A stretch of DNA of 455 nucleotides from Escherichia coli (GTDB lineage: Bacteria; Pseudomonadota; Gammaproteobacteria; Enterobacterales; Enterobacteriaceae). This document shows, in pieces, positions 1-455 of this stretch (the stretch's first letter is position 1; each line of letters opens with the position of its first letter). The stretch is from the NCBI RefSeq assembly GCF_003334255.1, contig NZ_QOWU01000238.1. The stretch is one strand, 5' to 3'. A program made the position numbers and the translations under genes. The notes beneath the pieces are model-generated. The model did no database searches and was not told the origin of the DNA. It saw only the letters and a list, made by a program, of their open reading frames with translations.

Positions 1-455
1 TCAGCACATGGCGGGGCTTCGTCTATGTGGCGTTCATCATTGATGTGTTTGCCGGATACATCGTGGGGTGGCGGGTCTCATCGTCCATGGAAACGACATT
101 CGTGCTGGATGCACTGGAGCAGGCGTTATGGGCCCGTCGACCGTCCGGCACGGTCCATCACAGTGATAAAGGTTCTCAGTATGTATCGCTGGCCTACACA
201 CAGCGGCTTAAGGAAGCCGGATTACTGGCATCAACAGGAAGTACAGGCGACTCGTATGACAACGCGATGGCGGAGAGCATCAATGGTCTTTACAAAGCGG
301 AGGTAATACACCGTAAGAGCTGGAAAAACCGTGCAGAAGTGGAACTGGCCACACTCACGTGGGTGGACTGGTATAACAATCGACGATTGCTGGAAAGGCT
401 GGGCCATACTCCTCCGGCAGAAGCAGAAAAAGCTTATTATGCTTCCATCGGAAAC
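1..455 (+). CDS. IS3-family transposase OrfB, DDE (rve) integrase catalytic domain; internal fragment, partial at both 5' and 3' ends
   Basis: Frame 3 (first full codon at 3..5) is open across the whole window and translates to [151 protein letters not shown]. It carries the IS3-family/retroviral-integrase signatures: 'HSDKGSQY' (second catalytic Asp, codon 165..167), '[16 protein letters not shown]' (catalytic Glu at 273..275, conserved Lys seven residues later at 294..296), and the C-terminal 'W(V/I)DWYN..RRL...G..PP.E.E..YY' block. Recognised from memory of IS3, IS629 and IS6110 OrfB sequences, not from a search. Confidence 0.9.
1..455 (+). mobile_element. Internal segment of an IS3-family insertion sequence (probably IS51 subgroup, IS629/IS1203/IS3411-like); no element ends within the window
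   Basis: The window is fully occupied by the transposase catalytic domain. Neither the IS terminal inverted repeats nor the orfA/orfB frameshift region are present, so the element boundaries lie outside the window on both sides. The subgroup assignment is from recalled motif patterns only. Confidence 0.8.

Follow-up and report, generated by a model that had tools for sequence, protein, structure and literature searches.

Transposition by the copy-out-paste-in route, via a circular intermediate, is established for IS911, IS2, IS3, and IS150. These four elements share with IS629 an orfA/orfB arrangement with a −1 frameshift, and their transposases belong to the same Pfam and NCBIfam families as OrfB of IS629; in the annotation of Escherichia coli K-12, the orfA and orfB genes of IS3 and of IS150 overlap by 4 nt. 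The first description of IS629, in Shigella sonnei, is credited to Matsutani & Ohtsubo, 1990 (as cited in PMC3271280). In pathogenic E. coli and Shigella, the element inactivates genes and is a driver of genome diversification (PMC3271280). Transposase-dependent excision of IS629/IS1203v is summarized in bioRxiv 10.1101/2023.06.07.543989, which describes orfA and orfB in −1 phase, OrfAB as the active product, a DDE triad, and a circular intermediate. IS629 also serves as host for another mobile element, the group II intron E.c.I4, which inserts at specific positions in IS629, IS911, ISEc16, and ISEc31 (PMC3522654); the supplement to that work lists the copy E.c.I4-2b for E. coli E24377A.

The DNA analyzed here, a stretch of 455 bases with a G+C content of 53% (referred to as the window throughout), is almost certainly (probability about 0.97) a fragment of orfB of IS629, a member of the IS3 family, comprising positions 796–1250 of the 1310-bp element and read in frame 3 of the plus strand; the name of the element is taken from annotated copies. 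It is an ordinary and very common piece of a well-described insertion sequence, already known and with nothing new about it.

The coding frame and the element it belongs to

Frame 3 of the plus strand (bases 3–455) contained no stop across 151 codons, as the initial annotation had pointed out and a stop count in all six frames confirmed. In the other frames, one (+1), seven (+2), four (−1), seven (−2), and six (−3) stops were present. When the window was shuffled 20,000 times with its dinucleotides preserved, frame 3 was fully open in 63 of the shuffled sequences (p about 0.003), and 258 of them had at least one fully open frame among the six (p about 0.013). That frame 3 is open by chance is unlikely, but its openness alone is not decisive, and it is homology that settles the coding status. 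The peptide encoded by frame 3 matched the NCBIfam family NF033516 (transpos_IS3, “IS3 family transposase”) with 177.6 bits (E 4.1e-52). The cutoff of this family, 160 bits, is curated for the whole protein, and the match was still above it despite spanning only the last 142 positions of the profile (228–369 of 369). The next-best NCBIfam family, IS481, reached 47.5 bits versus a cutoff of 224.

Three Pfam families were matched as well. Model positions 19–101 (of 102) of rve (PF00665) aligned with residues 2–83 of the peptide (bases 6–251, plus strand; E 1.4e-19, 70.7 bits); the 18 model positions before this match, among them that of the first catalytic Asp, fall upstream of the window. Further along the same strand, rve_3 (PF13683) matched residues 77–138 (bases 231–416; E 5.7e-12), overlapped by rve_2 (residues 91–139; E 1e-06). 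Together with the NF033516 match, these hits bear out the earlier assignment of frame 3 to a DDE transposase. It had also been predicted that rve would be found across most of the translation; rve was indeed found, but it covers 82 of the 151 residues (54%), and only rve and rve_3/rve_2 combined account for about 91% of the peptide. The distribution of variable sites was examined by comparing the window with eight other copies (93.6–99.6% identical and gap-free): the 50 variable sites fell on the first, second, and third position of the frame-3 codons in a ratio of 10:6:34 (chi-square p 1e-6). The open frame, the NCBIfam and Pfam matches, and 100% identity to full-length copies mark bases 3–455 of the plus strand as the real coding frame, corresponding to codons 141–291 of the 296 codons of orfB. 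No Rfam family was found in the window at the gathering threshold, and neither promoter-like nor terminator-like sites were found in it on either strand. When full-length OrfB was compared with PDB sequences using phmmer, no match was obtained at E ≤ 0.01; thus, a structural homologue for OrfB cannot be named by sequence.

With its last base, the window ends five codons before the stop codon of orfB, and it encodes the C-terminal half of the RNase-H-like DDE catalytic core plus the C-terminal tail, minus the last five residues. It had previously been described as the interior of an IS3-family transposase; the family was assigned correctly, but the position is rather the C-terminal half of orfB. 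OrfB was aligned with its counterparts from an IS1203-type element and from IS3 (InsF), IS150 (InsK), and IS2 (InsD) of E. coli K-12; D136, D195, E231, and K238 are among the columns that are invariant. The D, D, E, and K residues of the three K-12 elements are therefore held in common with IS629, at an OrfB identity of 20–30%. The second catalytic Asp, D195, is encoded by GAT at bases 165–167 (motif HHSDKGSQY), the catalytic Glu, E231, by GAG at bases 273–275 (motif DNAMAES), and the conserved Lys, K238, located seven residues past the Glu, by AAA at bases 294–296, all on the plus strand. Between D195 and E231 lie 35 residues. The IS3 family is recognized by a DDE triad with 35 residues between the second Asp and the Glu and by a Lys or Arg seven residues after the Glu. 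Of these features, all but the first Asp are inside the window, so that two of the three carboxylates that bind metal in the active site are encoded in it. The first catalytic Asp, D136, is located five codons upstream of the window and is present in identical full copies; this residue, the frameshift site, and the ends of the element are all outside the window.

The window had matches in 6709 records, which came from 4139 of the 5426 complete E. coli genomes compared. In 1838 records, the best match had an identity of at least 99%, and the genes concerned were labeled “IS3 family transposase” or “IS3-like element IS629 family transposase.” A match was also found in 3160 plasmids, mostly from Escherichia, Shigella, Salmonella, and Klebsiella. 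The complete 1310-bp element, to positions 796–1250 of which the window is 100% identical, is present in thousands of records from E. coli, Shigella, and Salmonella. Several genera carry identical copies of the window, which reside on chromosomes, plasmids, and prophages. Among the loci inspected, the identical 455-bp stretch was contained in two uninterrupted full copies (L001, on plasmid p120899_146, and L003), in a truncated relic (L002), and in two copies split by an intron (L020 and L021).

The copy in L001 occupies 1310 bp (1706–3015) and shows the organization of the intact element. Its terminal inverted repeats are 25 nt long (TGAACCGCCCCGGGAATCCTGGAGA and TCTCCAGGAAACCCGGGGCGGTTCA; TGAACC…GGTTCA in the full copies), with arms TGAACCGCCCCGGG… and …CCCGGGGCGGTTCA that are 92% complementary. 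orfA (1760–2086, 108 amino acids) and orfB (2083–2973, 296 amino acids) overlap in −1 phase, and a run of six adenines (A6, 2078–2083) is located at this overlap. In this copy, the CDS carries the PGAP annotation “programmed frameshift,” and the Rfam ALIL pseudoknot was found with 120.2 bits. In an intact element, GATGATCTGGCAGCCTGA lies downstream of the window and leads on to the right inverted repeat, …CCCGGGGCGGTTCA. Target duplications of 3–4 bp surround five copies (ATA, ATA, CTGG, GCC, and GGAC; that of L001 is ATA). Accordingly, the orfA/orfB frameshift arrangement and the TG…CA ends with 3–4 bp duplications, both characteristic of the IS3 family, are found in copies identical to the window.

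The frame, the family, and the catalytic residues are features of the window itself; its identical copies additionally show the termini of the element, the target duplications, and the signal for frameshifting. The transposition chemistry of IS629 can probably be taken over from its IS3-family relatives and from the summary in bioRxiv 10.1101/2023.06.07.543989. A programmed −1 frameshift at the A6 run, beside the ALIL pseudoknot, would generate the OrfAB fusion, the presumptive active transposase. By analogy, OrfAB would cut one strand at one end of the element and transfer it to a point on that same strand immediately beyond the opposite end. Replication would convert this figure-of-eight into an IS circle, which would then be inserted into a target with duplication of 3–4 bp (copy-out-paste-in).

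The name IS629 is based on several labels. An element annotated by its depositor as “IS3 family IS629,” with “IS629 transposase OrfA/OrfB,” on an Stx2a phage is 99.5% identical over the 1310 bp. Fragments that are 100% identical carry the PGAP label “IS3-like element IS629 family transposase,” and copies on Shigella flexneri plasmids are 99.2–99.6% identical. The exact OrfB of 296 amino acids belongs to a cluster of 2481 members named IS3 family or IS629 transposase, the names including “IS629 transposase OrfB.” By the rule of ISfinder, a DNA identity of about 95% or more designates the same IS or an isoform of it; the ISfinder reference entries are X51586 for IS629, U06468 for IS1203, and M19532 for IS3411.

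The E.c.I4 insertion site at the start of the window

When the full element was compared with plasmids, many of the matches ended with position 795. In four loci, a group II intron of 2270 bp is located between element positions 795 and 796 (4296–6565 in L018 and L019; 1787–4056 in L020 and L021). It begins with GTGTG and ends with CTCTAC, carries ltrA, and matches Rfam Intron_gpII with 64.9 bits. The sequence identity between this intron and E.c.I4-2b from E. coli E24377A, the copy used for the comparison instead of E.c.I4-1 of E. coli ED1a (NC_011745), is 99.7%. In all four loci, the intron directly precedes TCAGCACATGG, so that base 1 of the window is the first base of the 3′ exon (+1). Bases 1–10 of the window (plus strand) represent the 3′-exon side of the E.c.I4 homing site, the extent of about 10 nt being nominal; the window holds only this side of the target, and the intron itself is outside. 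In both host elements examined, the point of insertion is one base past conserved D-x-T-Y codons, which read D-F-T-Y in orfB of IS629. In the uninterrupted gene, the sequence just 5′ of the window is …GGCTGATTTTACTTACG (exon 1); in copies split by E.c.I4, it is …CCTCTTACTCTAC or …GCCCTGCCTCTTACTCTAC.

The last base of the window corresponds to element position 1250, and position 1251, directly past it, was compared in nine loci (L001, L003–L009, and L012): the IS629-type copies had G there, and three diverged isoforms had A. When a fragment of a multi-copy element is short, its start and its end often coincide with branch points of the repeat. The start at the intron junction, taken together with the variable next base, suggests that the window may be an assembly fragment produced by repeat collapse, with such branch points at its ends. 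The source of the window could be an IS629 orfB into which E.c.I4 has inserted, the window being its 3′ exon, and/or a repeat-collapsed assembly fragment whose ends are branch points between IS629 copies. A source of this kind would refine, rather than replace, the identification as IS629 orfB: the coding sequence would be the same, but, at the DNA level, the stretch would be a gene fragment that could be rejoined only by splicing.

That element position 796 is exactly the first base after the intron in these four loci speaks for this origin, since a start placed at random would fall on it about once in 1310. The insertion of E.c.I4 at specific positions in IS629 and other elements (PMC3522654) is in line with it, as is the site after the last base of the window, which is variable (G or A) among isoforms. 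Of the 5426 complete E. coli genomes, 1313 contain the junction between the 3′ end of the intron and bases 1–60 of the window, many of them with 100% identity, and L020 and L021, where the intron is directly before it, are identical over the entire window. However, the uninterrupted 795/796 junction is commoner (3053 of the 5426 genomes), the full copies in L001 and L003 are 100% identical over the window without being interrupted, and the sequence of the window itself is the same in both contexts. On balance, given a start that would coincide with position 796 in only one of about 1310 cases, we consider an intron-split or repeat-collapsed source a serious possibility, with odds slightly short of even. 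A transposase fragment such as this one may, in general, represent a single exon of a gene that an intron has split.

About one in four complete E. coli genomes carries the stretch corresponding to the window as the 3′ exon of an intron-split IS629. One might speculate that this exon is expressed separately, starting at window codon 29, an in-frame Met, and that the resulting truncated OrfB, devoid of the first catalytic Asp, acts as a dominant-negative regulator of IS629 transposition. This is very improbable: the window contains no promoter-like site from which the 3′ exon could be expressed separately, and its conservation is explained by ordinary coding for OrfB.

Isoforms of IS629 and the frame-1 open reading frame

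Irrespective of whether its source copy was split, the fragment is best assigned to IS629 proper. The likeness extends to the length of 1310 bp, an orfA of 108 and an orfB of 296 amino acids, the inverted repeats, and the duplications of 3–4 bp, and no difference was found in the annotated IS629 copies compared. The closest relative, IS1203/IS1203v, an isoform abundant in E. coli O157:H7 and O111:H-, has the same length, layout, and frameshift signal, and its OrfB is 97% identical. As all elements of the IS629 group are 1310 bp long with the same layout, and as IS629, IS1203, and IS3411 have been called isoforms of each other (PMC3271280), the window might stem from another member of the group (IS1203/IS1203v of O157:H7, or IS3411) instead of IS629 proper. 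However, copies with the PGAP label “IS3-like element IS1203 family transposase” differ from it by 23 nucleotides within the window (94.9% identity) and by 49 within the element (96.3% identity), a gap that fits the 4–5% by which IS629 sub-types diverge (PMC3271280). Copies labeled IS629 are closer, irrespective of whether the label was given by PGAP (100%, fragments), by the depositor (99.5%), or concerns Shigella flexneri plasmids (99.2–99.6%). Thus, an origin from another group member is unlikely, and IS1203 of O157:H7 in particular was rejected as the element of the window on account of its identity of 94.9% versus 100%.

IS1203 also differs from IS629 by a stop inside the open reading frame that frame 1 of the window contains. 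This ORF (bases 25–306, plus strand; 93 amino acids, ATG start) is the only one of at least 60 amino acids listed for the window, in agreement with the initial annotation, which had found nothing else in the ORF track; the next longest, of 58 and 54 amino acids, are on the minus strand. The explanation offered there for the absence of frame 3 was also right: frame 3 is missing from the list because the ORF tool omits ORFs that run off the ends of the source. As the sole ORF of this size with both ends in the window, starting with ATG in a frame with a single stop in 455 bases, the frame-1 ORF might be taken for the genuine gene, or for an additional one that overlaps the transposase frame. An independent family match of its product, named beforehand as the observation that would speak against a transposase, was looked for in NCBIfam (E ≤ 1) and Pfam (E ≤ 10), and none was found in either. 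A collection of about 15 billion predicted proteins did not contain the exact 93-residue sequence. In five of six diverged isoforms (93.6–96% identical), the ORF was broken by an in-frame stop. Over bases 25–303, these six isoforms carried 12–26 nucleotide changes each, which resulted in 2–5 amino-acid changes in frame 3 but 10–19 in frame 1; where 19–26 nucleotides differed, 17–19 of these differences altered the frame-1 product. Nearly all of the substitutions replace a residue of the frame-1 product yet are silent in frame 3. The absent family matches, the stops in the isoforms, and the substitution pattern rule out the frame-1 ORF as a gene, the chance that it is one being negligible; this chance overlap is a by-product devoid of function.

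The concern that the region would be mis-called as a hypothetical protein of 93 amino acids is justified for a naive reading of the ORF track, but it does not extend beyond that: the protein collection lacks the exact 93-residue sequence and contains the exact OrfB. If end-running ORFs are dropped from the ORF track of a short window or contig, a spurious ORF of 93 amino acids is displayed and a very common transposase is hidden. The significance of the finding is limited to annotation practice.

Surroundings of individual copies

In the icd-int region of phage 21 (L003; AF017626.1), the full 1310-bp element (623–1932) is 100% identical to the copy of L001 and is likewise flanked by an ATA duplication; the int CDS of this record is annotated as a joined pseudogene. 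L001 contains a second copy of IS629 in inverted orientation (3560–4817), which has an identity of 99.2%, carries a frameshift, and is missing its final 51 bp. The two copies are 545 bp apart, with a “transposase” CDS of 435 nt between them and genes of the IS66 and IS110 families around (region 3041–4817).

The IS629 relic of L002 (3010–3712) is 5′-truncated and comprises element positions 515–1310. It adjoins a truncated pseudogene for a “nucleotide-binding domain-containing protein” and a gene for a SLATT-domain protein, and the region is flanked by two copies of ISCro1 (IS66 family). This region could be the remnant of a defence-type locus.

In unrelated records (matches H72–H79 and H141–H164, and L018 at 6897), the element is truncated recurrently at the same points, namely between positions 111 and 112, 1127 and 1128, and 1136 and 1137. 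At 6897 of L018, an IS66-family element adjoins IS629 at 1127/1128. The recurrent truncation points are presumably nested insertions or relics of shared ancestry. Finally, the window matched NZ_CP122517.1 (H1; 3652435–3652979) as two pieces over 545 bp, which suggests that this copy contains an internal duplication of about 90 bp.
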